The notes under the pieces are model-generated. The model made no database searches. It was not told the origin of the DNA and saw only the letters and a list, made by a program, of their open reading frames with translations. Positions 6,923-44,825 of a stretch of DNA of 50,163 nucleotides are shown piece by piece. Position numbers and translations under genes: made by a program. This stretch comes from Nemertoderma westbladi (taxonomy: Eukaryota; Animalia; Xenacoelomorpha): the NCBI GenBank assembly GCA_032718475.1, contig JAUCBJ010007127.1, positions 1 to 50,163 on the forward strand, given 5' to 3'. Numbering within the stretch: position 1 is the stretch's first letter; the number at the start of each line of letters is the position of its first letter.

Positions 6923-7330
6923 GGTTACAGAGTTGAAAGAGTTAGTTTACAGGTTACATGATACAGAGATAGGGAATTCAGCCATTACACAGTATCAGCA
7001 AATGGCTCCTGGGTTAATAAAGCAAAAAGATGGGCTGAAGATTCAACAAAGAGTTGATGGATCTGTTGACTTCTATCGCAACTGGGATGAATATGTTGAA
7101 GGATTTGGTGACCCGAATACCAACTTTTGGTTGGGGTTGGAGACGATCCACAAGCTGAGTAAAGCCGGGGTGCAGTTGAGGGTCGATTTGTGGTTCAACA
7201 ACGAACACAAATACGCGGAATACAACAACTTCTCTATCGGATCAGCTGCAACTAATTATCGCTTACATGTATCCGGTTACCATGGTACTGCTGGTGACGC
7301 ATTGGAGTATCACAACGGTCAGCCATTCAG
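6923..7330 (+). pseudogene. Truncated fibrinogen-related domain (FReD) exon/pseudogene
   Basis: IQQRVDGSVDFYRNWDEYVEGFGD..NFWLGLETIHKL..LRVDL..KYAEY..F.IG.....YRLHVSGYHGTAGDAL.YHNGQPFS. Homology stops at PFS where a dispersed repeat begins; the C-terminal TxDxDND/WWY part is missing. Acceptor-like CCTAACAG ends at 6922. Confidence 0.75.
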
Positions 7331-18030: not shown

Positions 18031-18306
<276 letters not shown>

Positions 18307-19488
18307 TAAAGTGTAGGCTAATTAACCCGCGATAAACCTGCCACTGTATGCTAAATTCACTGCCCCCATAGGGCCTACTACTGTATTATACTCACATACC
18401 AATGTACTAAAATTAGTCAAATTAATACCCCTTCAAACACAATTTAACTCACCCACTCACCTATTTATACTGTATACTCCTCATCCATTCAGTCTCAATG
18501 GTAGGTGACCCACTCACTCCATAACATAAAACTTTACCGTCTTTTTGCTATTTTTTTTGCTTGCCGAGTGATTGGGGCGGCTTTGTTTCTGGATCTGTCA
18601 TCATTGACCATAATGAACCATAATTGATCATGTCACCCGCCCATTCTGCCCTCATTCATCAACTCCTTCACACACTCGACCTCACCTTGCACCTACTCAC
18701 TTCAACCCATTAATCCCTTCTTTCTAAACCGTCACTCATACTGTATCATGCATTGCTTCATTCTCTCTACCAACCATATCGTATATATAGTGATTCAATA
18801 ACAATCCCATACACTCACTCCCCCGCACAGAGATACAAAATCTGTGTCATAAAATATAAATTGTACTAATAGTGTAAAGTACCCTACCTGATTGGTACCA
18901 ACTGCAGTGGTAATTGAATTTAACATCGACTGGATCGAACTAATTTAGTAAATTGGACGCGGATTACTGGGTTGGCGCGCTATTAATCAGAAGGTTGCAG
19001 ACATTGTTGTGCTACTTAAACTCACTCTCGCTTTGGAGGGGGTGGTGTGCTATTGGGTTGCAGACATTCTGCACGGTACTTACTGCTTCGGGGTGGTTGG
19101 GGGAGATTAGCATCAGTATAATGCAGATTGATTTTAATAATGTGATGGGTTTAAAGTCACAAAGGCAGGATGTACCGGTAGGTAATAGGGTGTTTTATAT
19201 TAACCATAACCAAACAACAATATATTGAAACGTTATTATTTATTTATTATTTAATGTTTATAAAATTATTGGCATAGAGAAAGTTCATCTAAAACTACTT
19301 GCATTATCTTTTTGATTTTTTCTTATTTTGCTTAAATCAAAAACTGCCACAAACTTTGTGATATTTGTGAGACCTAAACAAAGACAGGTCATAACGCTAG
19401 TGGTTAGCAAACAGGTGTAATATATGTCATGGTGTCATAATAACATTGCCTTCTAACTAGAATAATAATTGTATTGTTATGACCACAG

Positions 19489-19611
19489 GATTCTGGTGCT
19501 AAAATTAACATATCGGATGGATCTACAAGCAGTGAACGAATGGTGACATTAACGGGAAACCCTGAAACAATAAACACCGCGTTCAGAATGATAGCTGAGA
19601 AGTTCGAAGAG
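19489..19611 (+). CDS. PCBP: PCBP next coding exon, rest of KH1
   Basis: CACAG|GAT acceptor; 41 codons DSGAKINISDGSTSSERMVTLTGNPETINTAFRMIAEKFEE, matching PCBP ESGARINIS..ERIVTITG....AF.MIA.KFEE; donor GTAAGA at 19612; phase matches the previous exon. Confidence 0.9.
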
Positions 19612-20685
19612 GTAAGAATTTAATTACAACTAATTATTATTATATGACTTCCAATAATAATAACTTTATTCTATATTTACAACAATAATTACAAAACTTT
19701 TATAGGAAAATTAATTTATTTTTATATTCACAATGTAATTCTAAGAAATTTAAAAAAAAAAAATGACATGAAAAATGAAAATCACTTTTCAAGTTACTTA
19801 ATAATTTTTAAATTTGCTTTTCAAGTTACTTAATAATTTTTAAATTTGCTTTTCAAGTAACTAACTAATTTAAGTAGGTCTAAGTTATATTATTTATATT
19901 AAATAATATTCATATTGATTATTTATTAGTTCAACATGTTATATAATTCCTCTGGCTAAAAAAGGGATTGCTTAATGGATAATAATATTATTATACCCGA
20001 GGCCTATTGGCTTTTACCAATCAGACAAATCAGATGAAAGTTAAAATCAAATTTATAGGCTTGGAAGCAACTGAATTCGGACTAGTTTATGTGAATATTT
20101 AAGGACAATTATTTAAAAAAATTCATAGGGCGGGTGAATTGATTAACCCCAACGTTTTGATACCATTGATCATCAGCTGTGATCAAATAAAGTGGTACAT
20201 TATAAGCCGATGATGTAGATTATATTACAATATCTCAGAATAATGCATCGTTTAGAAGCACCAGATGGAAAGGAATGTTGGAAACAATTATATAATAATT
20301 ATTATTAATTGGTTATTATTAATTAAATAGTTCAAATAATTAATCGGGTACAGCATTTATAGCCTGGTATACTTATAATATGGTTTAAGAGTCAAATTTA
20401 ATAATTAGAAAATACAACACAAACAATTCATATTATTTAAAATTATTTAAGTAAAATAAGAAAATAAAATTATAAATTTTAATATTGTAAAATTTATACA
20501 TTTCAGTTGATGAGAATTGATTAACACTTTATCAGAAATACTTGTTAATTAATTATATAATAAATCGATTGATAAATATATGAGTAAATATATAAGTAAT
20601 ATTCATGTGGTTATATTAAAGTGGTTATAAATAAGAAAGAAAATAAATACTGCAAATTAAATAAACATTAATGCGTCTTTATTAA

Positions 20686-22494: not shown

Positions 22495-23679
22495 TTAAAA
22501 TCGAATTTTCATTTCAACATGTGTGATAGGAGATGAGTTATGGGTATACCAAAATATACCCCTAGGGTACTCCAAGTCATAAATTCCATTTAGACTGCAG
22601 ACAGAACACACGTTATACCACCATGCTGCGCTCTGAGAAACTGCACAGTTCCCGCCATTGTTGCCATCATTATCTCTATCTTTAGTCGTAAACTCTTGGC
22701 CATTGAGGTTCGCGTGCTGAGATCCTTGGTATTCGTATACCATGCTGTCCCCAGCCGTTCCGCTGTAACCAGAGATGTCTAACTTATAATTATCAACAGC
22801 TGATCCAACTCTAAAGGAGGAATATTCCGCGTATTTGTGGTCATCATCCCACCACATGTCAACTCGCAGAATGACCCCAGCCTCAGTGAGTCTGTGAATG
22901 CTCTCTAAACCCAACCAGAAGTTAGCTGTAACATCTCCAAAGCCCCTCAAGTAACTGTCCCATTCGAGGAAGAAGTTCTCATCGCCGTTAACCCGCCGTT
23001 GTATTACGAGCCACGGACCATCCGGAACTGTTGCGTCGCACCGAATTAAACCGTTTACTCCATAAGAGTTGTTGTAGATCTTTATCGAATTATTCTGCTG
23101 AAAATGAGGGCAAATCTCCGCGTGATTGATATCCAATACTAGATGGAGTATTTCACTAATCTGCTGTTTCACTTCAGGAAAAAATGTATCATGTTCCTTG
23201 AGCTTACTGCTTAACATATTCCCTTGGTATTCTATCTTGCTAAGTATCTCGTTTTTATAACTCATTGACAAGCAGATGATAGCAATCATGGAGGCCAATA
23301 CCATAATGAATCCAATATTGATTAGGATTATAACTGTTCGCCATTGTGACTTATTCTTGGAATCTTTGTGCTTGTCGAAGGCAGAGCGAGCAATCTCGTT
23401 TGGTGTTTGTGGTTTTATATCGTATATGACGCTGCGATTTAGGCTGGAGTGGTGCGAGTTATTATCCAAATGACTTTTATTCATTTCTTCCCGTCGAATG
23501 CGTTCCATGGAGTTGAAGTTTTCCTTCCCTACGTATTCGTAGTCAGTTATCCCTGTGTTCGTTTCATAGGTGTTACTGGGGTATCGAGTGTTTGATTCGT
23601 AGGTGTTACAGGGGTTTGCAATGCCAAATCTAGTTGTAACATGCCCCATCTCTAATCGTCGGCAGTGTTCATCGGACAT
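22495..23679 (-). CDS. Type II transmembrane fibrinogen-domain (FReD, FIBCD1-like architecture) protein, 394 aa
   Basis: N-terminal hydrophilic tail, TM helix VIILINIGFIMVLASMIAIICL, helical neck, complete FBG domain (WLVIQRR, FWLGLE, GTAGDS, FTTKDRDND, WWY, CSLNG, EMKIR). Acceptor TTTCAG 5 nt before the ATG. Confidence 0.9.
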   Translation of the reverse strand: MSDEHCRRLEMGHVTTRFGIANPCNTYESNTRYPSNTYETNTGITDYEYVGKENFNSMERIRREEMNKSHLDNNSHHSSLNRSVIYDIKPQTPNEIARSAFDKHKDSKNKSQWRTVIILINIGFIMVLASMIAIICLSMSYKNEILSKIEYQGNMLSSKLKEHDTFFPEVKQQISEILHLVLDINHAEICPHFQQNNSIKIYNNSYGVNGLIRCDATVPDGPWLVIQRRVNGDENFFLEWDSYLRGFGDVTANFWLGLESIHRLTEAGVILRVDMWWDDDHKYAEYSSFRVGSAVDNYKLDISGYSGTAGDSMVYEYQGSQHANLNGQEFTTKDRDNDGNNGGNCAVSQSAAWWYNVCSVCSLNGIYDLEYPRGIFWYTHNSSPITHVEMKIRF

Positions 23680-25012: not shown

Positions 25013-25018
25013 CATTCA
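25013..25018. other. Left target-site duplication CATTCA
   Basis: Identical to 40081-40086, directly abutting the TIR. Confidence 0.93.
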
Positions 25019-25890
25019 AGTAGTAGGGTCTTGGCCGGCTCTGTGACACTTGGACCTCACTGACACCCATTGGGTGTCATATGACACCCAATTATCACCC
25101 TATGGGTGTCATTGGGTGTCATTGGCGCCAGACTGTCTGGGTGACACCTCCCAATTAGGCTAATTAGACCCTAATTGACAGGTGTCATCAATTAATTAGT
25201 TCAATTAAACCCTAACAGGTGTCATATGACTCCTAATTAGGGTTTAATTGATTATCCTAATTAATCAGACTGATTAGCGCCCTGACACACAATGGGTCAT
25301 CAGTTAGGTCCAAGTGTCACAGAGCCGGCTCAAGAGGGTGTCATAAGTGACACCGCAGCTCTTTTATTCATTAATATCTATTTATTTATATTTAATTTTA
25401 ATTAATTATTTGCATTTTATTTTATTCGTATTTAATTCTAAATTAATTATTCATTTGTACTTTATGGGTATACAGCTCCCTTACTGGTAACTAATTACTC
25501 CAGACAGCTTTATCGTTGACCTTTGACCCCCCAATTAGCTTTAACCAAGCAACAGCATATTAATGATAGTTGTATCCAAGCGCCCCTGCCCCCCACCCCG
25601 TGACAGCTCTGATTACTAATTACTCGTACATATATCCAACCGCCTGTAGTTCCATAGTCTGCCGCTAGAGGGCGTATTATCTGAAAATTAACATATTATA
25701 CATATTTAACTATTTATTTGTACCTAATTTTAATTAATTATTTGTATTCTATTTGACTTTATTTATTCATTTGTACTTTATTTTAAATTAATTAATTGTA
25801 TTACTTTTACTTTATATATTGATTTCTATTTTTAGATTAATTTGGTTTTATATTACCAATGAGATCACTATGACATAATGTCTATTTTTA
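25019..25890 (+). repeat. Left terminal inverted repeat (872 bp)
   Basis: Reverse complement of 39209-40080; same length; no mismatches in the segments I compared by eye. Confidence 0.95.
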
Positions 25891-26044
25891 GCTCTATGGT
25901 TTATAGATCCCTTATCGTTAACTTTATAATCTTTCCTCTCGCGGCCCCTTTGTCTTCGTTATTCAATGGCGCCATTCTGTCTACCATTGAATAACATTGG
26001 GCAATCATTATCTCGCCTGATGTAACGTCATCAAAGCTGCTCTC

Positions 26045-26149
26045 TGATTGGTTTAATTATACAGTCTTTTCTCCCTCCTGTTCCCTGATTGGCTAACCCA
26101 TTCTAGCCCCCTCTATAATAGCCCCCGTTCACCACATTCCCAATCATTG
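26045..26149 (+). promoter_or_regulatory. Putative Pol II promoter of the 569-aa ORF
   Basis: Two inverted CCAAT boxes (CTGATTGG at 26045 and ~26084), TATAATA at 26114, Inr-like TCATTG with its A 32 nt after the TATA start. Confidence 0.55.
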
Positions 26150-26239
26150 TCTCTTTGTTTTCCTGAAAAGTTTTAATTATTTTCGTAAAAGTATTTATTT
26201 ATTTTTATTTCCTAAACGAGTTACCGGTACACAATCACG

Positions 26240-27949
26240 ATGGCACATTCAGAAATCAGCTATTCAAGCAACGATCTGGTTTGCAACGAAAATCAGTTTA
26301 TGCTACAAGACAACTCGTTTGGTCTATATTTCGATTCGGCGAACAAACTCTTCCCGTTAACGATAAATACAACCTTAAACCAACCCATCCCGATTCCGGC
26401 AAACTACGCGCACTTTATTTTCCGCGCCTGCTACGAACTTCACGATGGACAATATCAAACCCTCGACGATAATAAACTTCATTCCTCCAACCACGGTTTC
26501 AAACTTTTAAAAAGGGACAACAAAATCACGTTCAATCTAACTACTTCGCCCGAGACGTTTACGATTCCAACTAGTATAGTCGATTTTATTCGAGAAAACA
26601 TCAACCAAGATGTGGCAAATCGTCTACTGGGTTTAACCACTCTCGTAACCTCCTTCTTCTCCGATGATCGCTTATTTGATTTTCATAGTATCGCAAACTC
26701 GATTCTTCTTCTCATCTGGAACTCGTCGACTCCGACCGAGGAAGAGGAGACTCGTTTCTTTAAACTTTTCGACAAGGATGTTCTCGCTTTCGGCGAGAAA
26801 TTGAATGAGCTCACATGCTTTTTCGCCAATAAAGTCTCCTATTACTTTGGATTCAATTATAGAGTTGGCACCTATGGAAGTATTAACCCAGTGAAACCAC
26901 TCGAGTTAATAAAGCTGGAAGACACGGTAAACAGTTCATGGATCACATTTTCCGTCGCCTGCGCCAATTTATTTCAACAATATGTAAACATCTGTCGCCC
27001 TTTTATTAATCCTACTACTCACCTTGTCCTAAAACCGGGTAATTGGGTTGCTTTTGACTATTGCACTTTTGGGTTTGTTACAAATATTCGGAACGAGCGC
27101 AATTTAGCGATCACCAATGGCTACGAGGTTGACGATGGAAAGGCTATTGTTTCTTCTAGGGGCATGATTCTTCTTACACCAAGCGAGGTCGGCGAATTGA
27201 AATGGTTCGATTCAACCGTCGAGGATAGTGAATGTGTCTGCTACGATGAACTTAACGTATACAAAGACAACATTTCCGAGCGAATATCGTTACAAAGTTG
27301 TATCAGTGATTCAGAAATTGATTTACAGATAACCGAGAGAAAATTTAACGAATCCTTTACTATAGCTAACACGATTCAAGCGCGCGAGGCTCTAATCAGA
27401 TTCAAGGCTATGGCTATACAATTTGCTTTCAAACCAAAGCAGATTACGATCCCCAATCATCAGCGCTATCTCATAAATAGCAATATCGCAGCCTTTATCT
27501 ATAAGTTCAAATCCGAAAAATATGTTGGTATCTGGCCCATTTTAATGAAAGACGAAGAGAATACCACTTTTCAGTTCACCAACGGTCTCAATATTAGGGG
27601 CAGCGATTTTCTCGCGATAAATATAACCAACCCACCCAACTCTCACTACTATCTCAGTCCTTACATTCATATCGAGAACAAACCAGCAGAAATTATATTC
27701 ACCAATACGAAAAATACCAACACTATCACCCTATCCAACGACTTTACCATCGCGCGCCTTTTCGAATTACTAAAACGTTCTCTCAGAGAAGGCATCTTTC
27801 TCCCGCAGCAAACACACCTTAATCTATTTCACCCCCCAAGAAAAGGCTATCTCAACAATCTATTAAAGAGAAAATTATCGCAACCATTAATAGTATCGGA
27901 CCCTAAAAGGGTTAAACCAGTTATTCTCGGAGGCCAGCAACCCTATTAA
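26240..27949 (+). CDS. 569-aa element protein with putative tandem PC4-like (ssDNA-binding) repeats and C-terminal NLS
   Basis: Long intact ORF with promoter and ATTAAA downstream. aa 409-460 and aa 261-322 align by eye with the PC4 core. KRK...PKRVK is NLS-like. The ORF is secure; the fold is inferred. Confidence 0.6.
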   Translation: MAHSEISYSSNDLVCNENQFMLQDNSFGLYFDSANKLFPLTINTTLNQPIPIPANYAHFIFRACYELHDGQYQTLDDNKLHSSNHGFKLLKRDNKITFNLTTSPETFTIPTSIVDFIRENINQDVANRLLGLTTLVTSFFSDDRLFDFHSIANSILLLIWNSSTPTEEEETRFFKLFDKDVLAFGEKLNELTCFFANKVSYYFGFNYRVGTYGSINPVKPLELIKLEDTVNSSWITFSVACANLFQQYVNICRPFINPTTHLVLKPGNWVAFDYCTFGFVTNIRNERNLAITNGYEVDDGKAIVSSRGMILLTPSEVGELKWFDSTVEDSECVCYDELNVYKDNISERISLQSCISDSEIDLQITERKFNESFTIANTIQAREALIRFKAMAIQFAFKPKQITIPNHQRYLINSNIAAFIYKFKSEKYVGIWPILMKDEENTTFQFTNGLNIRGSDFLAINITNPPNSHYYLSPYIHIENKPAEIIFTNTKNTNTITLSNDFTIARLFELLKRSLREGIFLPQQTHLNLFHPPRKGYLNNLLKRKLSQPLIVSDPKRVKPVILGGQQPY

Positions 27950-28199
27950 TATAAACAGTCTCTATTTATTAAAAACTGTTCTGATTATATCTTTTGTTAT
28001 TGTTGATGTTCTTATATTATTTATTATTAATGTTGTTGGTAAATTATTTATCCGTTGTTGTTATATTATTTAATATTGATGTTGTCGGTAAATTATTTAT
28101 TCTTGTTTCCCCATATTGTTTAAAAATATAAGATGTTTAACCGGTTATTTTTCATTTTTCTCTACTAGTTAATCTATTCTATGAGAGCGAGCCATGAAG

Positions 28200-29900
28200 T
28201 AAGTGAGTCTCAGCATACCATTAATGACCCCTACTGCTTCTTCGTAATCAATTTGAATGTTAACCCCTAAATAAACAGCCAATCCCTATGAATTCTTTAC
28301 AAACTCGATATGCAAGTTGTTTATCAGAGCTGATTTAATTAAAATATATTATTTAGCGATTTTCGTGATTAATGCTATAAATTATATTCACCAAAATGAA
28401 AATATCCACCCTATTACTCTATCCATCAAGCGATGCTTTGTATGTATTGATGGCGAGCAAAGTTTTCAGGGCGACCACCTCTAGGCTGTAAGTACGCTGT
28501 TCTGTCCTATCATAGACACTCTGTCTTTTAGATGCTTCACTGTTAATATTAAGCCGTTAGCCATGGCGCCGCTGATAAGCCGCGAGGATATTCAAAGGCT
28601 TTGGTTTGATTGTTCGTACTATGGATAGTTCAATGAAATCATGAAAGGGAGGGCCGCATGGGGTTGAAAGTGATAGCCCCTCATCCTTATTTTCCCGAGA
28701 AATTCTTAAAGGCGACTATGAATAGAACAATGAAACATTAAAGGGAGGACCGCATATGATGGGAAATGATAGGCTTTCAACTGCCTTTGCCCAGATTTGT
28801 GTAAGTTCGAGGGAGGATGTAGAGGAAAATATACTCGTAGCTTTAATGCCCCATTTGATTAAAGTAGAGCAAATTTAGCTTTCACCTAAGGGTTATCACT
28901 CCTTGCAACTGCAAAATTTAAAATTCTATCTATGATGTATTCACTATAACTCGTTTGCTGATATTATTTCATCGCGAAATTAAAAGCATCTGCTATCACT
29001 ATTATTATAGTATATTATCTAAACTAGTGACACCGAGTTGGAACAGATAGGATAATTGCACTTTGTTATGTTTTAGGTTAGTAGCTTTAATCATAATACT
29101 ACCGGGCTATAAAATGTTGTATAAATATCGGGGGGAGGGTCATAATGACCCCGATCGAGGTGGGGAATCGAAACTATGACAATCTGTATATCCTATTTTG
29201 TGTTTACTTTTTATATTTTCCACGAAGCGAGAGCAAAAATTTAAATTTCCTGAAAATTTCTGAGTCTCAGCACACCATTAATGATCCCTATGCCTTCTTC
29301 GTAGTCAATTTGAATGATAATCCCTAAATCCCTATATTTTTCATAAAAACCCTCAAAACTTTACAAATTTTGAAAAATCGGCTAATATAAAATGCCCCAT
29401 AGTTTCAATAAAAATGGTACTCGAAATGTGAATACAATGCTTCCACTTCATCAAGGTGAAACCTTAACGAAAACTATCCTGATCCACACTCGATTTGTAA
29501 ATACATTGCATCCACTTTTACCCAGATGGAGCATTTGTATTGTATTTAAGATTTATTTTCATGACTCACATAATAACCCCAATACTACCGGCCTATAAAA
29601 TGTTGTACAAACACCGGGGAGGGTCATAATGACCCTGGTCGGGGGTAGGGAATCGAATCTATGACAATCTGTATATCCTATTTTGTGTTTACTTTTTATT
29701 TTTTCCGTGAAGCGACGGCCAAAATTTAAAATTCCTGAAAATTTCGCGGATAGAGAATTATAAATATAATTGGTGAGCATAGTGCTACGCGAAGGCTCCA
29801 TGGCAGATGTATTTTAGCTATGGACTCGTATATCCATTTTACTCTACTATAGCCAGACTGTCTTTGAGGTGCCCCGTTAGCCTTGGCGCCGCTAAATCTG
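28200..29900. repeat. Internal non-coding region of the element built from imperfect duplications
   Basis: 28204-28270 resembles 29261-29328; 29093-29250 resembles 29581-29745; 28513-28580 resembles 29854-29895. Confidence 0.75.
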
Positions 29901-29994
29901 CATGAGGGCCGGCCGGTAAGCGAGATATCTCTATTGCTAATAAGCTTGAGGGCCCAAATAAGGCTAACATTCATATGCTATATCCCATAGTTAT

Positions 29995-30080
29995 TACCGA
30001 TATATAATTACTACTGGCTCCTAACGACTTATCACTGTACCGATATATAATTACTACTGGCTCCTAACGACTTATCACTG
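29995..30080. repeat. Perfect 43-bp tandem duplication upstream of the acidic-ORF promoter
   Basis: TACCGATATATAATTACTACTGGCTCCTAACGACTTATCACTG x2 (29995-30037, 30038-30080). Confidence 0.95.
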
Positions 30081-30143
30081 GGAGCCCTTTAATTAAAGCC
30101 GCCGCTCGTTGAAACTGTTGCGTTGCTCCCTCTGCGTTGATGC

Positions 30144-30181
30144 TATATAAACCGAGTTGGGACCTTCATTCGTCATCAGTT
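30144..30181 (+). promoter_or_regulatory. TATA box plus initiator for the acidic ORF
   Basis: TATATAAA at 30144-30151 and TCAGTT at 30176-30181; AATAAA at 30718 after the stop. Confidence 0.65.
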
Positions 30182-30266
30182 TTGACATCGAATAATTCAC
30201 AAGTTATTGTAAACTTTTTTCATTTTTAAACTTTTGCGTTTACAATTTATCGAGTTACTATTTATC

Positions 30267-30686
30267 ATGGCTTCCACCACCAGCACCCAGCTAGCCGCCT
30301 CCGTGACACCGGTCTCCACCACAGCTACACCCGTCACCACCATATCCAACGCTACCATCACCATCACATCCAGAAGCGTCGGTACACAGACCACGGAGAG
30401 CAGGTCGGAAGCGGTAACTCCCTATGGCCGTTTTATGAGGGACCAGGAAGAGGAAATGGCGTGGGAGGAAGATTTGTTTGATCGGGAGCTCGAGATTCGA
30501 GCACTGGAGGAGGAGAGGTTGGAGCGACTTCGGACCTCCTCCAACTGGTACGATCAATATTTGTATCAGGAATTTCTCGAGGAAGAGATAGCGGCGGCTG
30601 AGGAGAGCAGGTATAAACATCCCTTTCCCCAGGAAAACTGGGAGGAAACAGAAGATTTCAGGGAGGAACCATGGTGTAAGTTTTAA
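30267..30686 (+). CDS. 139-aa S/T-rich then acidic/aromatic protein with an LC8-type TQT motif
   Basis: ATCATGG start context at 30267, GC-richer than flanks, own TATA/Inr and polyA signal; RSVGTQT; E/D-rich C-terminal half studded with W/F/Y. Confidence 0.7.
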   Translation: MASTTSTQLAASVTPVSTTATPVTTISNATITITSRSVGTQTTESRSEAVTPYGRFMRDQEEEMAWEEDLFDRELEIRALEEERLERLRTSSNWYDQYLYQEFLEEEIAAAEESRYKHPFPQENWEETEDFREEPWCKF

Positions 30687-31164
30687 TTAATACTAACATT
30701 CCTTTATAATATGATATAATAAAATAGGTTAAAGCAATAAGCAGATTGAGTAGAAATTAATTTGAGTAATTACAATAATTATAAAGTTATACGAATTACC
30801 AAGATGATTATAAAGCAATTACATAAATAATAAATTATTATTTACTTATAAAATAAATTATTTCTTTTCTCATAGGCTAAATTATATTCTATCGCTGAGG
30901 GCTCAGAGTTAGTTTTCGCTGGAGCGAGCGAGATGGGAGGATTGGGAGCGCAGTAGAGGGGTGACAGTTGGACCTCACTGTGAAAACGAATAAATTAGTG
31001 TTACTAATGGGGGGCTGATGAGTTATAATTCTATGGAGTGGAGAAAAAAGAGTCATAAAGAACTTTATTTGTTTAATTATACTTTAGCTATCCATACTTA
31101 TTTTATTGTTTCTACGGTATAGGCCACCAGAAAACCCAGATTTGTACAATTGTGAACAATTTTA

Positions 31165-31302
31165 TCAAATGTGTACCAGTGTAATGTAATGTTGTTGAAC
31201 GGGACAATTGAACATAATTTTCCGCCAAAGGAAAAAATTAATAGTTTTGAAACGTTTAGTAATCTGGAAACTCTCTATAGTTTGCAGCGAACTGTTACTC
31301 AT
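31165..31302 (-). CDS. Possible 45-aa micro-ORF
   Basis: TTTTCAG|CTATA-ATG acceptor context; MSNSSLQTIESFQITKRFKTINFFLWRKIMFNCPVQQHYITLVHI; minus-strand AATAAA near 31100 and 31065. Confidence 0.25.
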   Translation of the reverse strand: MSNSSLQTIESFQITKRFKTINFFLWRKIMFNCPVQQHYITLVHI

Positions 31303-32446
31303 TATAGCTGAAAATGTGATAAGGATTTTGTTTACCTTTATTAAAGTGTGCGGTTAATAGTGTCTAGTAGGCCCATAGTTAGTGATGTTAAGGCATCTTC
31401 TGGTGTTTCTCTGTGCCCTCTCGGTGTCAGACTAATGGCGCGACATCTCCCTACACTAAATTAATTATTCAATGGTCTAGCCTCCTCCATTCACATATCC
31501 CATCCACTCCTATACACTCCATGAACCTCCATGTGGTCTTGTATGTAGTTCTCTCTCTACCATTATAGCCCATGTCCGCAATGTTACGCCCGAGGGGGCT
31601 CTCTCGTCTACCTGATATCAGACATACAGGCCCACCGCACACAAAGCCTTTGTCGATCCCAGCAAGTTAGCCTCCTGCTGTGTGATCTTTTATATCCAAA
31701 TAATGTCTGATGGTTGCGCATAAAAATTTTGCTTACTATTACACAATTATATTAGTATTAGGACTATTTATCCATAATAATTATATTAGAATTATAAATG
31801 TATTTACCCCACAATATTTATTACTATTAGATGTATTTATTCAAGAAATTATATGTTTTTATAATATACTTTGGAAAATTAGTCGACTAAGTCATAATTT
31901 TTAAAACTTTAAATACGGGTTGAGTTATTTTATAAAGTTAAGAAGAATGAACCAATAGAGGGAGCCTGAAGTCTAATCTCTTGGCCTTTACTCCCATTAA
32001 CTCCCAAGGTTGCATACTATCACTATAGCTGGGAGAGTCGAAGCTAGAGTATATGCTAGAGTTAACCAAGAGCTAGGAAAAAGAATAATGCTCTTCTAGG
32101 GTCCAAACTCACGACCTTCTAATTAGAAAACTAAGCAAATAATCAGCTTGAAGGCCTTAGACCCTTAATCGGAGGCATCGAGCAGCCAATGAGAGAGCAG
32201 ATGCGAGTACAGTGGTAAAGCCCATCCATAGTGAGATAGCGTTGCACTAGCTCTCAAGGATAGTTATACTCACCATTCAAATATCCCTCGCAAACCAGAG
32301 TCCCCCAACATCTAAAGTATTACACTTCAATGCAAAATATATAATGCAATATAACTCGAATATTTCTGTTTTTTATAATATAAATAATGATTGTAGCATA
32401 AATTTATAATTTCACATAAATATAATGTGAAAATTCACTTTAATAT

Positions 32447-32950
32447 AGAGTAACTAACTAAACATGTAATAGGATATACAGATGGTCATAGGTTCGACCC
32501 ATTCTCGTATCCCGTTTTATGGAAAATATAAAAAGTAAACATAGAATAACTAGAGTAACTAAACTAAACATAAAATAGGATGAACAGGTGGTCACATGTT
32601 CGATCCCTACTCGCGACCATTATAAATCCAACACAAAATAAGTTAAACCAGGGTTCGAATCCTAATCATGAAAATATAAAAAGTAAACATAGAATAACTA
32701 GAGTAACTAAACTAAACATAAAATAGGAAAAACAGAAGGTCACGGGCTCAATCCCTACTCGTATCCCGTTTTATGGAAAATAAACAGGAGGTCATAGGTT
32801 CAATCCCTACTCGCGACCATTATAAATCCAACACAAAATAAGATAAACCAGGGTTCGAATCCTACTAATGCAATTATAAAAAGTGGGTAACACGGATGGT
32901 CACGGATTCAAACCCTACTCACGGAAAAATAAAAACCAACACAAAATAAA
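32447..32950 (+). repeat. Complex tandem array carrying seven Pol III B-box/tRNA T-arm-like motifs
   Basis: GGTTCGACCC 32491, GTTCGATCC 32598, GGTTCGAATCC 32652, GGCTCAATCC 32745, GGTTCAATCC 32797, GGTTCGAATCC 32852, GGATTCAAACC 32904, separated by A-rich repeated spacers. Confidence 0.8.
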
Positions 32951-32987
32951 TAATATAGTAAACTTTCATGTATATCATAGTAAATAG

Positions 32988-33503
32988 CTAATTTAATAAT
33001 AAAGTTTGTAAAATAGATAATGATTCGGGGAATTCACCGGCTGGACACATGGAAACGATTTTATTACTATGAAATACACTGAAATATGCACGTCCTATAT
33101 ATATTCTAATCGCGCAAAATAATTCGGGGGTATAGCTAATAAATATTGCTTTATTATTAAATGTATGATGTCCACATTTTTTCATTAATAATTTAAAATT
33201 AACACTTGGAAAAATAATAGTTCGTGTTTCGGTATTAAGTTTCAAATTTTGTAATTGCATACCGATAGTTTGTTTTAAATAAAGCAATTCACTAGCTAAA
33301 TTATTGCACAGGCCTACAATTGTTACTGCGCCGCTGGGAAATAGCATTATAGTTGAATCGTCACCTTTGTAGATAAACATGTTTGGTTTTAAGCATCTTT
33401 GACCTGTAATTTGCTGTGAAATTTTCTCTAGTTCAAATTTGGCAATGTTTTTTCCGGTGAACTGTTTATTGGTTATTTCTATTTTGTTGTTCAATTTCTT
33501 ATT
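32988..33503 (-). CDS. TBP-fold (TATA-binding-protein-like) protein, terminal exon without a 5' ATG
   Basis: Two TBP-type repeats: STIMLFPSGAVTIVG resembles TALIFSSGKMVCTG; SYTPELFCAIRI..FSVFHSNKIV resembles SYEPELFPGLIY..LLIFVSGKVV; IEITN...FELEKIS resembles PQLQN...LDLKTIA. The frame opens immediately after acceptor ATTTTTCTAG (33513-33504). Confidence 0.72.
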   Translation of the reverse strand, partial: NKKLNNKIEITNKQFTGKNIAKFELEKISQQITGQRCLKPNMFIYKGDDSTIMLFPSGAVTIVGLCNNLASELLYLKQTIGMQLQNLKLNTETRTIIFPSVNFKLLMKKCGHHTFNNKAIFISYTPELFCAIRIYIGRAYFSVFHSNKIVSMCPAGEFPESLSILQTLLLN

Positions 33504-33517
33504 CTAGAAAAATAAAA

Positions 33518-36500
33518 TTAAATTCTAGTAGGGGGGATTACTACTCGTTTCGCCGGTCTAACAAGCTTAGTGCTATAGTGTCCATATGGTTTGCTGCTAT
33601 ATTTACTACTCCAATATGATTTCGTATCCCAGAGCGTTAGTGCCTTCTTATAGACATGACCAGTAAAAATTTGATGCTTTCTAGAAGTGAAGGTAGAGTT
33701 ATAGCGGAAGAGCATTGCCTCGTTTTCAAAACAGTCTGCATAATCCTCGTGTGTTAGTTGCTTAGCGACAACCGATCTAGATACTCCTTTGGCGGTTTTC
33801 TTGATTGGGGCATCATAGGATTGAAAACTGTAGACCTTTGGTTTAAGGAAAACCCACTGTTTATACTGCAAACCGCAGCTCTCATCTTTTACGAAGCCGA
33901 GAGCCGCTTTGTGTTTAATGGTATAGAGTGGATGTGTTGTACTGTAGTTGGAAGTATCTAGGAAACCACCCTCAAACATTGCCCGTAGAAAGGTTAGCTG
34001 TGGTGTATTAGTTACGCTTAGCATTAGAGAATCCGTGTCACCGGCTAGACAGCGAATCTGGCAATCCAGTTTTTGTTCTAGAGGCTTCAGTTTGTTGTAA
34101 AATAGGTCGTACATCTGTAGCTTAGATAGATCTAGTATAGTGCAACCGATGAACACGCCCTGATTTAGGCAAACAGCCTCTTTAGTGAAAGTATGACCAC
34201 TCAAGTTGGGGGTAAATACAACAAACGATTCGTGATTGGGCTTGGCTAAGAGCAAATCGCATTGTTCGTCGCTATTGCATAACCTGAAAGAAACGCGGTC
34301 TCTAACCTTTTGGAGGCATTTCCCATACAAGGCATTGTTCATCAACTTATAAAATAGGACCTCGAATGGGTTATTTGCCGACTGTCTTTTATTTGTATTA
34401 AAACTAATGTAGTCCTTGAAAATATATTTTTGTGAGAAAGAGTAGACCCTATGTACTTGTGTAAGTTTAAGACCGAGCTTCAAATAGAGTTGAAGTAGCT
34501 TAATATGGATACCGTATTCAACCTTATTAAACTGATGTAGTAGTAGCTTAGTACAGGTATCGTTGTATGGTCTACAGGTGGCCCTATCGGTGAGATTGTA
34601 ATGCTCCCAAAGATCTTCCATGTATTCGCTAAGAAAGGATTTAGGGACTGACATCTTCTCCGCTCCTAGAGGCAGATCGGCGGTCAAATCATGAATTTCT
34701 TTCGGATAATGTAGATCAACTATGCAATAATAACCAGTATCCCCACTCGCGTCTACTGTAGCTAGGTCTATGGGGGTAGTTACGAGTTTAATATTAGCGT
34801 AGGGAAGTTTCTGGCTCAGGGCGCAGCCGTAAAGGTTATTCGCATCGATGGGAATTAGATATTTCTCGGGGAGACTGGAGTCATAGTCGGGTTTATCGGG
34901 GATATTTGCGTCTACGGAATGTGTATTCAAGAATACTAGACCACCCCTAATATTTGTTTCAAAGTCCGAGTAGATGGAAGCGTCTGATAGTAATTGAATT
35001 TCTGATTGCGTGAATTTCAGCGCCGCGTCGTAAGTTAATCCAGGGGCAGTGAAGTACATTACGGGCTCGAGTCCATAATTAGTAAGACAGAGGGATCGGA
35101 ACTGCTCGAAAGTATCAGCCAATAGGGTAACATCTAGAACCAAATAGCCAATCATATAGTCGAAGATTGTTAGACAGTTTAATTCATCCCAAGTAGTAAG
35201 CGCGCGCTGATAGTTTTCTGCGCTACATTGTTCCAATTTGAGATCATTATAGAAGCTTTCTAATGGGGGGAGTGTAGTTTCGTGTAGGTTTGAAATATTT
35301 TGAATATAGGAATATGGGAATACACCCTTGTTTTTTATTGTGTTATCGCTAATGTTGGGATAGAGTTGGGTCATTTGAGCTAGTGTATGGGGTATGGCTG
35401 TTGCTAGGTTACTGTTATTTTTAGTGAGATAACTACTAAGATTATCTAGGCTGGCAGTCATAAACTGATAGGAATCTAGAAAATTAATGGAGATACTTTC
35501 TTTAGCGTTGGCTGTTGGTGTACTCGGATCGATTGGAAAGCTAACTTTAAGGTGAATATAAGTTTCGGTGTTTTTTGGTATTACACTCATTTTCCAGTGT
35601 GTTCTAGAACTATCGGTCATTCCTTCTTTTAGTAGTAAATGCATATCGAATTTCCTCAAGTTATGAAATATAATATAAAAATTATTCCGTTTTAGGGAAA
35701 GTTTCCTGTTGCAGCTGACGCAAGCAGCCCCTCGATACTCCCCGCTATAATGATCATGATCGCGGACTTTGGTGCTGAGATTGTCATTGAGGTTTAAATT
35801 ATGCGAATCGGGGGTTAAATTACAGTTGCAGACGTAGCATTGTGTAGCGTTATTAAAGTCAGTTTGCTGGCTAGTAGTGAGTTGCATGGGGGCGTGTGTG
35901 TTTGTACTAGAAATGGACCAATCGTATAACTCCCTACAATGACTTTCCATAGCGGTTAGAAAGTCGCGCATTATGTGGTTACTGCCATCGTCACGGAAAA
36001 TTTGAACATCTGTTTTAGGAGGGTTAATTAATTTTTGATTTGGTACTGTATAAAAGGCTGCCGCGCTAGCTATATGTTTCTGTGGGAGTTTAATATTGTT
36101 TGTAGGTTCTAGAATAGTTTCAATGTCGGCGTATATACAGAAAGGTGGGGATAGAGTCTTATCGTACCTGTCAAATTTAACCAAGAGATTTTCGGGCATA
36201 TACTCGAGCTGGCGTTTACCCGTATAGCAGCGCTCTCGATGTTCTCCCAGTGATTTGTCAGTGTAAAAGGCTCTGAGACAGCGTTCGCAGTGCGTCTTGT
36301 TGCCGGTAGAAGTAGCTTTAGTATTTATTAATCTATCTATGTTAGTAATAGCTACATAGTGGGCAGGGTTTTTGGTTGTGGCTTCGATAAATAATAAGTT
36401 TAGTACAGTTTTACCGGAACAGTGCGCGCTATCTGGTTGACTTAAAATGGAGAGTTCTTCCGTATTACTCCAATAAAGAAGGTTTATACAGTATATAGGG

Positions 36501-37573
36501 TTGGCTTTCAGAAACTGGGGAATACCAGTTACTCTGTCCACCGGGAAACTTAAATTGGAAAAATCAAACATGTTTAGAAAAGGGGTATACGTTGAAATTC
36601 TTTTGATATTATTTTGTTTTCTATCAATTTTCTTATAATTTGCGGCGGCCAATACTGCGTATTTAAAGCATTCCCCCAGCGGGCAGTCTACGCTTACGGT
36701 ACATTTTTTATTTAATAATAATTTAGAATTATTGAAGCCTTGACCCTTTAAATAGGGGTTGCGTTGGGACCGCGCAATCTCAATAGTTATTCGCTCGATG
36801 GCTATTATGCGCCAACCCGAGCCGAGGCAGAGAAACACGCTTAACAGTTGATCGATACGATTGACGGCGCTAGAAAACCAGTTATTAAAGTCGCTATTAT
36901 TTAGAATTTGATTATTGTTACCGCTAGATTTAAAACAGAATGATTCAATTTGAAATCCCTCGCTCGTTTCACGCTCCATTACGATGTTGATTGTAAGCCA
37001 GACTCTTAAAAAAGTTCCCATGGCACTACGTAAATGGCTACTAACGTGTTCTTGAATGTGTGGAAAATTTTCATTTAATGTTAATTCTGCGTCGAGTCTT
37101 GTTTCTGCGAGGTCGTTGTTATAGGTAAACAGTCGTCCGTGTGCGCTTCCGTTGGAGGGGGGTTGAAATGGATTGTTTGGGGAAATAGAATCTCGTGAAG
37201 TTGAAGGTTCATTATTGGAGCCGCCGCCGCCGACTTGTTCTGGAGTAGAGTTGATGGGGGATGAGTGGGAGGTAGTCGGAGTTTTGCGTTTCCGCGAAAA
37301 AAGTCGAGTGTAGCATTCATGCTCAGAAAAGGATGACAGGGTGAGCGAATCCCCGCAGCGGCAATCGGCTGGCTCGTTTACGTAACTAAATCCTGTTCCC
37401 CCCTGAGGACACGAAGCAAGATGGCCAATCAGCGTCTTCTTTTCCGAAGACCAAGTCGGACAGCAGTCGCATCGATATTGCGCGAAATGAGTTTTAATAT
37501 GGCGAGATAAATTATCACTCCGCGTCTCTTTGTCGCAGATGGGGCAGCTGACTTTATTGGTTGATCTTGGCAT
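33518..37573 (-). CDS. Protein-primed family B DNA polymerase (Polinton pPolB with endonuclease VII/HNH-like insert), 1351 aa
   Basis: Exo motifs IYADIE, FHNLRKFD, YLVLDV; KGVFPY; Pol motifs DANNLYG, KLMNNALYGK, GDTDS, PKVY, AKG. N-terminal C2H2 finger, terminal-protein GSGW motif, vOTU-like CFKYAV..HY, and CxxC..VRDHDHYSGEYRGAACxxCN. Confidence 0.96.
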   Translation of the reverse strand: MPRSTNKVSCPICDKETRSDNLSRHIKTHFAQYRCDCCPTWSSEKKTLIGHLASCPQGGTGFSYVNEPADCRCGDSLTLSSFSEHECYTRLFSRKRKTPTTSHSSPINSTPEQVGGGGSNNEPSTSRDSISPNNPFQPPSNGSAHGRLFTYNNDLAETRLDAELTLNENFPHIQEHVSSHLRSAMGTFLRVWLTINIVMERETSEGFQIESFCFKSSGNNNQILNNSDFNNWFSSAVNRIDQLLSVFLCLGSGWRIIAIERITIEIARSQRNPYLKGQGFNNSKLLLNKKCTVSVDCPLGECFKYAVLAAANYKKIDRKQNNIKRISTYTPFLNMFDFSNLSFPVDRVTGIPQFLKANPIYCINLLYWSNTEELSILSQPDSAHCSGKTVLNLLFIEATTKNPAHYVAITNIDRLINTKATSTGNKTHCERCLRAFYTDKSLGEHRERCYTGKRQLEYMPENLLVKFDRYDKTLSPPFCIYADIETILEPTNNIKLPQKHIASAAAFYTVPNQKLINPPKTDVQIFRDDGSNHIMRDFLTAMESHCRELYDWSISSTNTHAPMQLTTSQQTDFNNATQCYVCNCNLTPDSHNLNLNDNLSTKVRDHDHYSGEYRGAACVSCNRKLSLKRNNFYIIFHNLRKFDMHLLLKEGMTDSSRTHWKMSVIPKNTETYIHLKVSFPIDPSTPTANAKESISINFLDSYQFMTASLDNLSSYLTKNNSNLATAIPHTLAQMTQLYPNISDNTIKNKGVFPYSYIQNISNLHETTLPPLESFYNDLKLEQCSAENYQRALTTWDELNCLTIFDYMIGYLVLDVTLLADTFEQFRSLCLTNYGLEPVMYFTAPGLTYDAALKFTQSEIQLLSDASIYSDFETNIRGGLVFLNTHSVDANIPDKPDYDSSLPEKYLIPIDANNLYGCALSQKLPYANIKLVTTPIDLATVDASGDTGYYCIVDLHYPKEIHDLTADLPLGAEKMSVPKSFLSEYMEDLWEHYNLTDRATCRPYNDTCTKLLLHQFNKVEYGIHIKLLQLYLKLGLKLTQVHRVYSFSQKYIFKDYISFNTNKRQSANNPFEVLFYKLMNNALYGKCLQKVRDRVSFRLCNSDEQCDLLLAKPNHESFVVFTPNLSGHTFTKEAVCLNQGVFIGCTILDLSKLQMYDLFYNKLKPLEQKLDCQIRCLAGDTDSLMLSVTNTPQLTFLRAMFEGGFLDTSNYSTTHPLYTIKHKAALGFVKDESCGLQYKQWVFLKPKVYSFQSYDAPIKKTAKGVSRSVVAKQLTHEDYADCFENEAMLFRYNSTFTSRKHQIFTGHVYKKALTLWDTKSYWSSKYSSKPYGHYSTKLVRPAKRVVIPPTRI

Positions 37574-38283
37574 CTTGAATCTAGAAAAATATGTTGATTA
37601 TTTATAAAAATAAAAAATACTGTATACGTGCTAAAAATAAAGTAAAACAGTAGGTATTAATTGGTTACTAGGCAACAATACTGTGTTTGTATAGTTAGGC
37701 CTATTGCTGTATTGTAGCAATCAGCCAGTGAAACATAAAGCAGACCGTCGGTAGTGTCTAGTGTGGAAGTGTTAGTGTACCAGCGGTCAGATAGTGGCGA
37801 TAACCAAGACACAATAGCGATGGCAGTTATTATTCGTGGAAAGAGGGTCTATAAACAGCAGTCAGTCAGTGCAGTAGTGCTAGTGATATAGTCTGCTACA
37901 AGTCAGACGTACCGGTAGCGTTAACCAATAGAAATCAACGATAGGCTTAGCTAATCGCTGTGTGAGATCTCAGTTAGTCAGTAGGATATATAGTGAAAAC
38001 TGCAGTATTCATTGTTGTTCAATAGGGTCTATATCGCTACTATGATGGCATTAGGCTAACTCGAATGATGGGTTATCGGTAGTTGGGTAGACAGGCAGAT
38101 AGACAGATGTAGGCCTATTGATCGAATGCTTCGATCACGGTTTAGGCTATCGGTACCACCGCAGTCTGACAGTAATTAATAATGAGCCTACTGCAATACT
38201 GTTGTACCGGTAGACATTAAATGTAAATTGTTTGCTAGCGGCATCGATAGTACCGTCAGATGGTGGAAGGGAAGGCAGATTTT

Positions 38284-38720
38284 ACTTACGGTGTTAGTAA
38301 ATATTCACGGAAAGAAGAAGTTTGGACGTTCGTGAGGAAGTTGGTTGACGTGGACGATGAGAGAATTTATTAACCGATAGAGCGGAATGATATCGGAAAT
38401 TAGAAATAATGGAATATTACGCGGCGGATATGCGGAAAGTTTGTTGTCGACGATGAGCAATAGCACGGCGAAATGACAATAATACAACTCTACAAGTGGG
38501 TTGTTGACTGATGATAACAAATAAATATTCTTAATAAATAATATTAAATTCGAAAACAAAATAATGGTAAATGATGTTAATTGTAAATTGCAATTGAATT
38601 AATGACCTAATATATTGATGGGGACTTATTAAATAGCAATTCGGTTAGTAAGGGAGGCCCTTGTCTCTTAAATGAGCCAATCAGAACGCAGCAGCAGAAA
38701 TGAAGCCCGCTGATTGGCTG
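38284..38720 (-). promoter_or_regulatory. Putative promoter and non-coding leader exon of the minus-strand (pPolB) transcription unit
   Basis: CCAAT boxes at ~38677 and ~38713; minus-strand TATTTAA starting at 38635; Inr-like TCATT with A at 38603 (32 nt); ATG-free stretch down to donor GTAAGT at 38289-38284; acceptor ATTTTTCTAG at 37590-37581. Confidence 0.5.
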
Positions 38721-39208
38721 TTCATGCATAAGCGGTAACCAGGGCAACTTCTCGCGTTGATGAATCTATTAGAAAACTCTTGTAAGCATCTTGACTAATT
38801 ATATTGAGTTGGCTGTATAACAGAAGCAGGTCTGGTGCAAAGGAAAGGGATTAGTAGAGAGGAATGCGTGATTAGAGGCGCTTCATTGTTATGATACGGG
38901 TTGCCTGGATATAGGAAAGGGACAAAGCGACGTCGGCTATAGTGGGAACAATGGAGGGCCGCTTGAGCATTAGCCTTGGGCGATATACGGATTTGCTGTA
39001 GTCAAGGCCGCGATGGGATTATTAGTGAGTCATCGGGGGGGAGGCTAACAGACGGGACCGCTCATTTATATTTGCCTTGGGGTATACGTGTAGATTCACT
39101 GCCTGTCGTATCTAGTTAATGAATAATGATGGCAGAGGAGGGGCCCCCGCCGATGAACGTAGTTGATAGTTGCCAGTAGGGAGCCGTATACCATAGCCAT
39201 TATAAAGT

Positions 39209-40080
39209 TAAAAATAGACATTATGTCATAGTGATCTCATTGGTAATATAAAACCAAATTAATCTAAAAATAGAAATCAATATATAAAGTAAAAGTAATA
39301 CAATTAATTAATTTAAAATAAAGTACAAATGAATAAATAAAGTCAAATAGAATACAAATAATTAATTAAAATTAGGTACAAATAAATAGTTAAATATGTA
39401 TAATATGTTAATTTTCAGATAATACGCCCTCTAGCGGCAGACTATGGAACTACAGGCGGTTGGATATATGTACGAGTAATTAGTAATCAGAGCTGTCACG
39501 GGGTGGGGGGCAGGGGCGCTTGGATACAACTATCATTAATATGCTGTTGCTTGGTTAAAGCTAATTGGGGGGTCAAAGGTCAACGATAAAGCTGTCTGGA
39601 GTAATTAGTTACCAGTAAGGGAGCTGTATACCCATAAAGTACAAATGAATAATTAATTTAGAATTAAATACGAATAAAATAAAATGCAAATAATTAATTA
39701 AAATTAAATATAAATAAATAGATATTAATGAATAAAAGAGCTGCGGTGTCACTTATGACACCCTCTTGAGCCGGCTCTGTGACACTTGGACCTAACTGAT
39801 GACCCATTGTGTGTCAGGGCGCTAATCAGTCTGATTAATTAGGATAATCAATTAAACCCTAATTAGGAGTCATATGACACCTGTTAGGGTTTAATTGAAC
39901 TAATTAATTGATGACACCTGTCAATTAGGGTCTAATTAGCCTAATTGGGAGGTGTCACCCAGACAGTCTGGCGCCAATGACACCCAATGACACCCATAGG
40001 GTGATAATTGGGTGTCATATGACACCCAATGGGTGTCAGTGAGGTCCAAGTGTCACAGAGCCGGCCAAGACCCTACTACT
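39209..40080 (-). repeat. Right terminal inverted repeat (872 bp)
   Basis: Reverse complement of 25019-25890; ends CCCTACTACT. Confidence 0.95.
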
Positions 40081-40086
40081 CATTCA
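40081..40086. other. Right target-site duplication CATTCA
   Basis: Identical to 25013-25018. Confidence 0.93.
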
Positions 40087-43703: not shown

Positions 43704-44825
43704 TTAATTGAAACTCGCTTGTAATTTTGGTACTCTTATTTTCATTTCCACCCGAGTCAGCTCCAAACTGAAAGTAGACCAGAATACCCCTTTTGGATAT
43801 GTCATTCCGTAATGTCCGTTTAGATTAGCATAAGTACATGAAGCATACCACCAAGCACCAGACATGCCGGTAGCACAATCAGAAGAAGTCACGGAGTTAT
43901 CTCGATCTCTCGTGGAGAATGGCTGTCCACTGCCGTAGAGTAAACCTCCAGGGGAACCGTACAGTATTGAATCCCCCGCAGTACCGCTGAATCCTGACAA
44001 ATCTAATTCGTAATTACTAGCGGCCGATTTCACCTGGAACGAGGTATATTCCGCATACTTGTGTTCCCCATCGGAATCCCAAAGATCGATCCTTAGTGGA
44101 ACACCACCCTCGGATAATCTATGGAGACTCTCTAACCCTATCCAGAACTCGTGAGTGACGTCACCGAACCCGCGGAGGTAACTGTGCCATCCTCGGAAGA
44201 AATCCACTGAGCCGTTTACTCTCCTTTGGAACACCAGCCAAGGACCCTCCGGGAATCTGGTATCACAACGTATTAAACCTGAGAGCCCAAAGGAGCTGTT
44301 GTAGAAATTAATTGTATCATTTCTTTGGCTTTTTGGGCAGAATTCGGTATTTTTTAATATCAATACGCCTTTTAAATCTTCCAATTGTTTCATTAATTTA
44401 ATAAATTCCCTCTCTTGCGAATTTAGTTGACTAGTTAATAAACTTCCCTGCACATTTACCTTGTCGACAAATTCTTGTTTATCACCAACCATTAGAAATA
44501 TTATTACCAAGGCAGTGGCTAACAGGAATAGGAATCCAATGTTAAGTATGATCATAACTACCAACCAATAGTTTTTCATTGTTGGCTCTTCTTGCTTTTT
44601 ACCATCTTTCAACAGTTCAACATAATTAGATTCTGCCAACCCATTGGGTTTATATTGATTATATATGACATTATTCGAAACAGGGTCTTTTTCTTCTTTT
44701 GTTGGTTGACTTTTTATAGAATGTAAATTGCAACTTGACATATCCTCATAATCAATAGGTATTTCGTTAGTTGCTTGGACATCAGCTAACTCGATCGATT
44801 TAATGTTTTCTCCATCAGCAGCCAT
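43704..44825 (-). CDS. Type II transmembrane fibrinogen-domain (FReD) protein, 373 aa, paralog of 22495-23679
   Basis: Tail, TM helix WLVVMIILNIGFLFLLATALVIIFLMV, neck, full FBG domain (WLVFQRR, FWIGLE, GTAGDS, FSTRDRDN, GAWWY, ANLNG, EMKIR). Acceptor TTTTCAG 14 nt before the ATG. Confidence 0.9.
   Translation of the reverse strand: MAADGENIKSIELADVQATNEIPIDYEDMSSCNLHSIKSQPTKEEKDPVSNNVIYNQYKPNGLAESNYVELLKDGKKQEEPTMKNYWLVVMIILNIGFLFLLATALVIIFLMVGDKQEFVDKVNVQGSLLTSQLNSQEREFIKLMKQLEDLKGVLILKNTEFCPKSQRNDTINFYNSSFGLSGLIRCDTRFPEGPWLVFQRRVNGSVDFFRGWHSYLRGFGDVTHEFWIGLESLHRLSEGGVPLRIDLWDSDGEHKYAEYTSFQVKSAASNYELDLSGFSGTAGDSILYGSPGGLLYGSGQPFSTRDRDNSVTSSDCATGMSGAWWYASCTYANLNGHYGMTYPKGVFWSTFSLELTRVEMKIRVPKLQASFN

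Follow-up and report, generated by a model that had tools for sequence, protein, structure and literature searches.

How is a protein made from an open reading frame (ORF) that has no start codon of its own? This question is raised by a stretch of contig JAUCBJ010007127.1 from Nemertoderma westbladi (assembly GCA_032718475.1; positions 1 to 50,163, hereafter the window, 50,163 nt), which contains a Maverick/Polinton element in which the polymerase gene, pPolB, is followed on the same strand by a TBP-like frame lacking an ATG at its opening. The two frames are:

33518..37573, minus strand: pPolB, 1351 aa, with its ATG at 37573
32988..33503, minus strand: TBP-like ORF, 171 codons, opening in phase 0 at 33503

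Judged from the sequence, the AGs that stand ahead of these two frames are supported as cis acceptors of one transcription unit. We propose, as a tentative reading that is considerably more open to doubt, that pPolB and the ATG-less TBP form one alternatively spliced unit in which the TBP start would come from pPolB via a donor at 36697.

The TBP-like frame and its start

The original prediction placed this frame in phase 0 with no nearby ATG, and its first in-frame ATG is indeed codon 42 (33380), preceded by an out-of-frame ATG at 33396. Single-sequence searches with the frame gave no match, and its score against Pfam PF00352 was 18.8 bits, under the cut-off of 22.9. Homologs are encoded by the three nearest contigs (L031, L024, and L019); a profile made from these three and the window frame, in a search limited to proteins of 92-308 aa, so that fusions could not appear, found 300 proteins, with PF00352 on all 120 among the matches listed. 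A structural model made with an 89-sequence alignment had a predicted local distance difference test (pLDDT) score of 81 and a predicted template modelling (pTM) score of 0.67, as against a pLDDT of 32 without the alignment. Foldseek matched the model to human TBP (E=1.4e-7, TM 0.63, at about 18-20% identity), and PDB ranks 1 to 44, among the matches listed, were all TBP entries; in BFVD, the model had viral TBP-like matches. As modelled, the ATG-less frame is a real two-repeat TBP saddle fold.

The part of this fold that precedes the first Met is substantial. In the model, a strand-helix-strand occupies residues 9-41 (the first strand and the helix being residues 9-31), and the near-invariant family residues N12, L25, and P40 are kept. 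Because residues 9-41 build the fold and all 171 codons of the frame are open, the modelled TBP fold needs an upstream start, with which the family alignment agrees; the claim that the full fold requires residues upstream of the first Met is thereby borne out. In the homologs, the nearest Met lies 4-10 residues ahead of the conserved Asn in 85/120 and exactly 5 residues ahead in 59/120, counts in which 11 of the 120 lack the conserved-Asn column and the starts are gene-caller predictions. Readthrough or frameshifting from pPolB was considered as a source of the start and rejected, the TBP frame being shifted and closed by its own TAG (33506-33504).

Two probable acceptors and a predicted leader

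The features that bear on splicing upstream and at the end of the unit are as follows:

38603..38717, minus strand: predicted RNA polymerase II (Pol II) promoter, with CCAAT/ATTGG at 38717/38681, TATTTAA at 38635, and TCATT at 38605
38290..38603, minus strand: predicted ATG-free leader exon, 314 nt
37581..38289, minus strand: predicted intron 1, 709 nt, from an ACC/GTAAGT donor to a TATTTTTCTAG acceptor, with an alternative acceptor at 37630
33504..33514, minus strand: second TATTTTTCTAG acceptor, within the 14 nt separating the pPolB stop from the TBP-like frame
32930..32997, minus strand: predicted poly(A) signal common to both frames, with ATTAAA overlapping the TBP stop and a U/GU-rich tract after it

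There are exactly two copies of the 10-mer ATTTTTCTAG in the window, each on the minus strand (37590-37581 and 33513-33504), so that the identical acceptors predicted ahead of the pPolB ATG and of the TBP-like frame are present at those positions; anchored on the AG, the identity is in fact 12 nt, 11 upstream and 1 downstream. The first AG lies 7 nt ahead of the pPolB ATG. Taken alone, the 10-mer hardly exceeds chance within the window, where 0.37 occurrences are expected and 5 of 100 shuffles reach two. Among 1338 acceptor-like sites drawn from the window and the fetched loci, the last 10 nt are common to 0.15% of pairs and the last 11 nt to 0.06%.

One explanation of the second site is that its AG is not used, the T-rich spacer being ordinary AT-rich DNA and the TBP-like frame either a 5'-clipped relic or read from an internal promoter. 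A third TTTTCTAG, with ATTC after the AG, lies inside pPolB at 35475, where it is made by Phe-Leu-Asp codons in phase 1; because this copy arises from codons, TTTTCTAG can occur without being an acceptor. Moreover, T-rich YAG occurs about 0.6 times per kb in the non-coding DNA of the element, and a TATAAGA at 33652 might serve as the internal promoter. Set against this are the 12-nt identity at two gene starts, the open frame of 171 codons with its fold intact, and the fact that an internal start would meet the out-of-frame AUG first and would still be without an in-frame one. We consider this explanation unlikely, and we think it quite probable that the 33504 acceptor is used in some way.

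The first acceptor has a predicted leader in front of it. The predicted leader (38603-38290) contains no ATG against about 3 expected (P(0)=0.02), and predicted intron 1 holds 5 ATGs. The TATA and initiator (Inr) motifs and the ATG-free leader ending at GTAAGT (38289) that had been put forward are thus all found, and the motifs at 38603-38717 are what we take to be CCAAT/ATTGG, TATA-like, and Inr-like elements, their function as a promoter being presumed. A further T-rich acceptor lies at 37630. Among relatives in the pPolB clade with a complete 5' end, 3/9 have a T-rich YAG 11-17 nt before the pPolB ATG, as against 1/49 other pPolBs; in further controls, it was found before 1/27 other ORFs of the clade and 11/364 ORFs elsewhere. 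From these sequence features, it is probable that pPolB has a spliced 5' leader. An ATG-bearing micro-exon in intron 1 was also tried and rejected: among the top in-frame donors (best 14 + 8 of 70), none has an ATG upstream of that of pPolB. As regards the original prediction of an adenovirus-style spliced unit, cis acceptors have gained support (from the leader with its host-type donor and from acceptors in the relatives and in host genes), and the motifs that a putative adenovirus-style joining would use are present.

Another possibility is that a host spliced leader (SL) ending in AUG is trans-spliced at 33503 in the manner of flatworms. The frame is in phase 0 at the acceptor and begins 14 nt after an upstream stop, as in operons, and all SLs reported from parasitic flatworms end in ATG according to PMC12582326. 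The same leader, however, would not be in frame with pPolB, whose ATG is 7 nt past the acceptor, or with either of the two host fibrinogen-domain genes (5 and 14 nt; see below); pPolB already has a cis donor and promoter motifs, and the window yielded no SL RNA. We regard this route as very improbable. Three routes to a start had been offered (a donor inside pPolB, an SL, and non-AUG initiation); the donor inside pPolB is the best supported of these, modestly so, and the flatworm SL, being out of frame at the pPolB acceptor, is unsupported.

A candidate donor inside pPolB

36692..36700, minus strand: candidate internal donor ACC/GTAAGC, phase 0, after codon 292 (36697)

The ACC/GTAAGC that had been singled out as a phase-0 donor motif is present, and the alternatively spliced unit that we tentatively favour would work as follows. 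Transcription would start near 38603, the ATG-free leader would be spliced from 38289 to 37580, and both mRNAs would end past the TBP stop. An mRNA that keeps the 3194 nt from 36697 to 33504 would give the full pPolB of 1351 aa; if this stretch is removed via the weak ACC/GTAAGC donor, pPolB codons 1-292 (the zinc finger and the terminal-protein region) would be placed in frame with TBP, giving a product of 463 aa and supplying the TBP start codon.

The layout of pPolB gives this junction a particular position. The protein has a C2H2 zinc finger, an endonuclease VII-like insert, an exonuclease, and a polymerase, it matches PF03175 (E=5.8e-18) with 822 homologs found, and it has an OTU-like Cys/His pair. 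A terminal-protein (TP) domain at about 150-275 and a vOTU (Cys302) are inferred, with limits taken from motifs and from the parts of preprint 10.1101/2024.03.18.585575 in which the TP-vOTU-EXO-PALM layout is described and a cut between TP and vOTU is proposed. The 36697 donor follows the GSGW motif and the linker, and the Cys of the CFKY motif is ten residues further on; if the domains map onto the window pPolB in this way, the donor would be at the TP/vOTU boundary. The junction would then lie just past the linker of the proposed vOTU cut, and cleavage could, speculatively, free TBP and a spare terminal protein. Overall, it is conceivable, with slightly greater reserve than for the spliced unit itself, that a Polinton shorn of virion and integrase genes makes a TP-TBP protein via a weak donor and that the vOTU could cut this into a transcription factor and a spare primer.

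Several observations favour the donor. On the minus strand between 38700 and 33503, GTRAG occurs only in ACC/GTAAGT (38289) and ACC/GTAAGC (36697). The coding strand of pPolB has no GTRAG besides the latter, against 3.8 expected (P=0.09) and 10 on the opposite strand, and GTRAG is rare on the sense strand of the four ORFs of the element taken together (2 vs 6.5 expected, P=0.028, this being 1 of 5 patterns tried). With a weight matrix of textbook frequencies, the 36697 donor ranks 1/70 among in-frame candidates by its intronic bases and 2 overall, and it is of the same GTRAG type as three host donors. Its +5 G comes from Ser294, at a position that is Asn in 169/171 aligned pPolBs, and the window pPolB departs from the consensus at 3/57 columns as conserved as this one. 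Finally, pPolB and TBP are only 14 nt apart, and it is after TBP that a poly(A)-like signal and a GU-rich tract are found.

Other observations weigh against a start supplied by pPolB. For GTAAG alone, the scarcity does not reach significance (P=0.23). When pPolB is shuffled synonymously, 90% of the shuffles contain a phase-0 GTRAG at one place or another and 6.6% contain ACCGTAAG; with Val-Ser given, a GTRAG falls on the 36697 site itself in 21%. Among 203 GT sites, the full matrix places the 36697 donor 8th, and a phase-0 AAG/GTTAGA at 34306, also amid changed conserved residues, outscores it. The argument from Ser294 is weakened because the motif around it has diverged as a block (4/8 conserved columns in residues 251-300). 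The phase-1 acceptor-like site at 35475 is nearer to the donor than 33504 and would compete. No relative shows a pPolB-TBP fusion, and a PF00352-type domain is present on 0/120 pPolB homologs among the matches listed. In the 3/3 TBP-bearing loci among the 110 related loci, TBP is a stand-alone gene with its own ATG on the pPolB strand (L024, 7791-8402; L019, 5182-5739; L031, 14573-15142); these genes lie 1-5.5 kb downstream of pPolB, and the small genes in between are not in the window element. A second 10-mer common to both acceptor regions, downstream of the acceptors (P=0.005, post hoc), better fits a leader joined directly to TBP.

In that explanation, the leader would be spliced straight to 33503, skipping 4786 nt, and TBP would be a stand-alone protein with a near-cognate start or with a start lost in this copy or lineage. 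The first ten codons, inside which the Met position of the 85/120 homologs also falls, include two near-cognate ones that both have A at -3: UUG (codon 4) and AUA (codon 8). The succession of acceptor, few bases, and start would be that of pPolB (7 nt), the host genes (5 and 14 nt), and the relatives (11-17 nt), and the 12-nt identity together with the second shared 10-mer suggests that the TBP 5' end was copied from a pPolB start cassette. However, A-rich DNA contains many near-cognate codons, and those here are followed at 33396 by an out-of-frame AUG that also has A at -3. Non-AUG initiation is weak, and of two identical acceptors the proximal one would be expected to prevail in most cases. 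As to a lost start, the element seemingly lacks the virion genes that a TBP might serve, and its TBP, though open throughout, departs at 6/19 highly conserved columns as compared with 13/138 in pPolB; on the other hand, the terminal inverted repeats (TIRs) are identical at 879/879 positions and no frame is interrupted, so that a loss in the window copy would have had little time to occur. We consider direct splicing of the leader doubtful, though the most serious of the alternatives.

A tiny intron of 38, 41, or 59 nt, with phase-0 donors at 33541, 33544, and 33562, might instead remove the pPolB stop and yield a full-length pPolB-TBP fusion of about 1510 aa. A GTA does lie 38-40 nt upstream of each of the acceptors 37630, 37580, and 33503, against a background of 5.5% per site for a 4-nt window, but there is no clear 38-41 nt peak at the other 26 acceptor-like sites of the window (6/26 vs 0-7 in other bins). 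The donors have neither a -1 G nor a +5 G, whereas host donors are GTRAG and host introns are about 100 and 1212 nt, and the pPolB tail KRVVIP, which would be intronic, resembles conserved tails of the relatives. This fusion is distinctly unlikely.

In FastTree (66 rows, last 900 residues, other pPolBs left out), the window pPolB clusters, with a support of 100, with metagenomic contigs that include Mavericks. By our own reading of their sequences, L031 and L024 among these are near-complete Mavericks with integrase, ATPase, and penton-like ORFs, L024 also having a capsid ORF. One set of contigs, possibly from RNA, includes short stretches that match the 3' half of pPolB at about 99%; none of them spans either acceptor, so that they speak neither for nor against splicing. 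Scans of viral contigs with TBP and with a 569-aa ORF of the element gave no confirmed locus.

The element, its setting, and known systems

The element, its remaining ORFs, and the host genes around it are:

25019-40080: Maverick/Polinton element, 15,062 nt, with TIRs and a target-site duplication (TSD)
25019..25897: left TIR, 879 nt, beginning AGTAGTAG, 100% complementary to the right arm
39202..40080: right TIR, 879 nt, complement of the left arm
25013-25018 and 40081-40086: 6-bp TSD CATTCA, flanking both element ends
26240..27949, plus strand: 569-aa ORF with its own TATA/CCAAT motifs, frame intact
30267..30686, plus strand: 139-aa acidic ORF behind a textbook TATATAAA and TCAGTT
22495-23679 (minus), 43704-44825 (minus), and 6921-7412 (plus): fibrinogen-domain genes of the host, one a fragment and two with one coding exon each
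17931-19612, plus strand: host KH-domain gene with introns of about 100 and 1212 nt

The AGTAGT ends of the TIRs are what we take to be the Maverick/Polinton motif; a scan with the TIR ends gave a single match, which was unrelated. Since the TIRs are perfectly identical and the TSD is clean, the element was inserted recently. It has four evident ORFs, the 569-aa and 139-aa ones on the plus strand and pPolB and the TBP-like frame on the minus strand. Its gene content was compared, in all six frames, with 34 family profiles made from the ORFs of the 110 related loci and labelled by our own reading of the sequences: opposite-strand matches aside, only the polymerase, zinc finger, and TBP families matched, with no match for integrase and none for the major or minor capsid protein, penton, packaging ATPase, or maturation protease. 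From its sequence, the element appears to be a Maverick derivative, seemingly without integrase and virion genes, and, with no integrase detected, this enzyme would have to act in trans.

The 569-aa ORF had no usable match in Pfam, PHROGs, Atlas, viral contigs, or the gene families of the relatives; its start is, we presume, loosely like penton N-termini, and it could hold a very divergent virion protein. The 139-aa ORF is Thr-rich and then strongly acidic with Trp/Phe, so that its product would resemble an activation domain. Units of 44-105 nt are repeated at 32416-32949, just beyond the TBP stop, and at 29159-29260 and 29644-29745. They carry GGTTCRANYCC, 3/7 of whose matches in the window lie there and which is like a Pol III B-box or a tRNA T-loop; ARAGORN found no tRNA in the window, and no relevant Rfam family was found there either. 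A 40-nt stretch from GTGAGT to TTTTTCCTAG (32112-32073, minus strand) in non-coding DNA of the element looks like a small intron and has no surrounding ORF.

The flanks hold fibrinogen-domain genes, reverse-transcriptase fragments, and an intron-bearing KH-domain gene, and because of these the host, judged by its flanking genes, is likely an animal. In each of the two single-exon fibrinogen-domain genes, a TTTCAG acceptor lies 5 or 14 nt ahead of the ATG, and a membrane helix is predicted at the N-terminus of the product. In the KH-domain gene, presumably PCBP-like, 3/3 donors (the first of them inferred) are GTRAG, their exonic bases being weak, and one exon opens with ATG straight after the AG.

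Maverick genes are as a rule annotated without introns, and Polintons have been proposed as the ancestors of adenoviruses, which split the terminal protein from the polymerase and express both by alternative splicing. If the TBP start does come from pPolB, a transposon that splices at the boundary between TP and vOTU would offer a living parallel to this split, and the element's own TBP would be tied to replication. ATG-less Polinton ORFs may then be live spliced genes rather than relics.

The window element is like Mavericks/Polintons with a group-2 type pPolB (alpha adintoviruses; PMC8502044, PMC8097293) in its long perfect TIRs, 6-bp TSD, PF03175-type pPolB with the OTU-like Cys/His pair, and TBP-like gene. 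It differs from Mavericks/Polintons in that no integrase, capsid, penton, ATPase, or protease was detected and in that its TBP is ATG-less and abuts pPolB. Figure legends in PMC8502044 and in its preprint, 10.1101/697771, label TBP-like genes of Polinton-type viruses, and the genes of intact vertebrate Mavericks are intronless in the account given in PMC8097293. The Polinton TBP gene itself is already in print; a spliced start was not found in print, which is weak evidence of novelty, and no description of a spliced TP-TBP or pPolB-TBP product was found in listings from the open-access literature.

With cellular TBP (PF00352) and the TBP-like proteins of giant viruses and herpesviruses, the window frame has the two-repeat fold in common, whereas it is diverged and ATG-less. 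A flatworm SL with a 3' AUG would give a Met at the phase-0 acceptor but would be out of frame at that of pPolB. The hexon, penton, and protease of adenoviruses have no counterpart detected in the element. In the E2B unit of adenovirus, as outlined in PMC11304566, the pTP and Ad-pol mRNAs have shared 5' exons, alternative junctions to their terminal exons, and a common 3' end. There, TP and polymerase are separate ORFs, whereas in the window element a single frame would encode both, and a TBP fold would be encoded by the alternative last exon.

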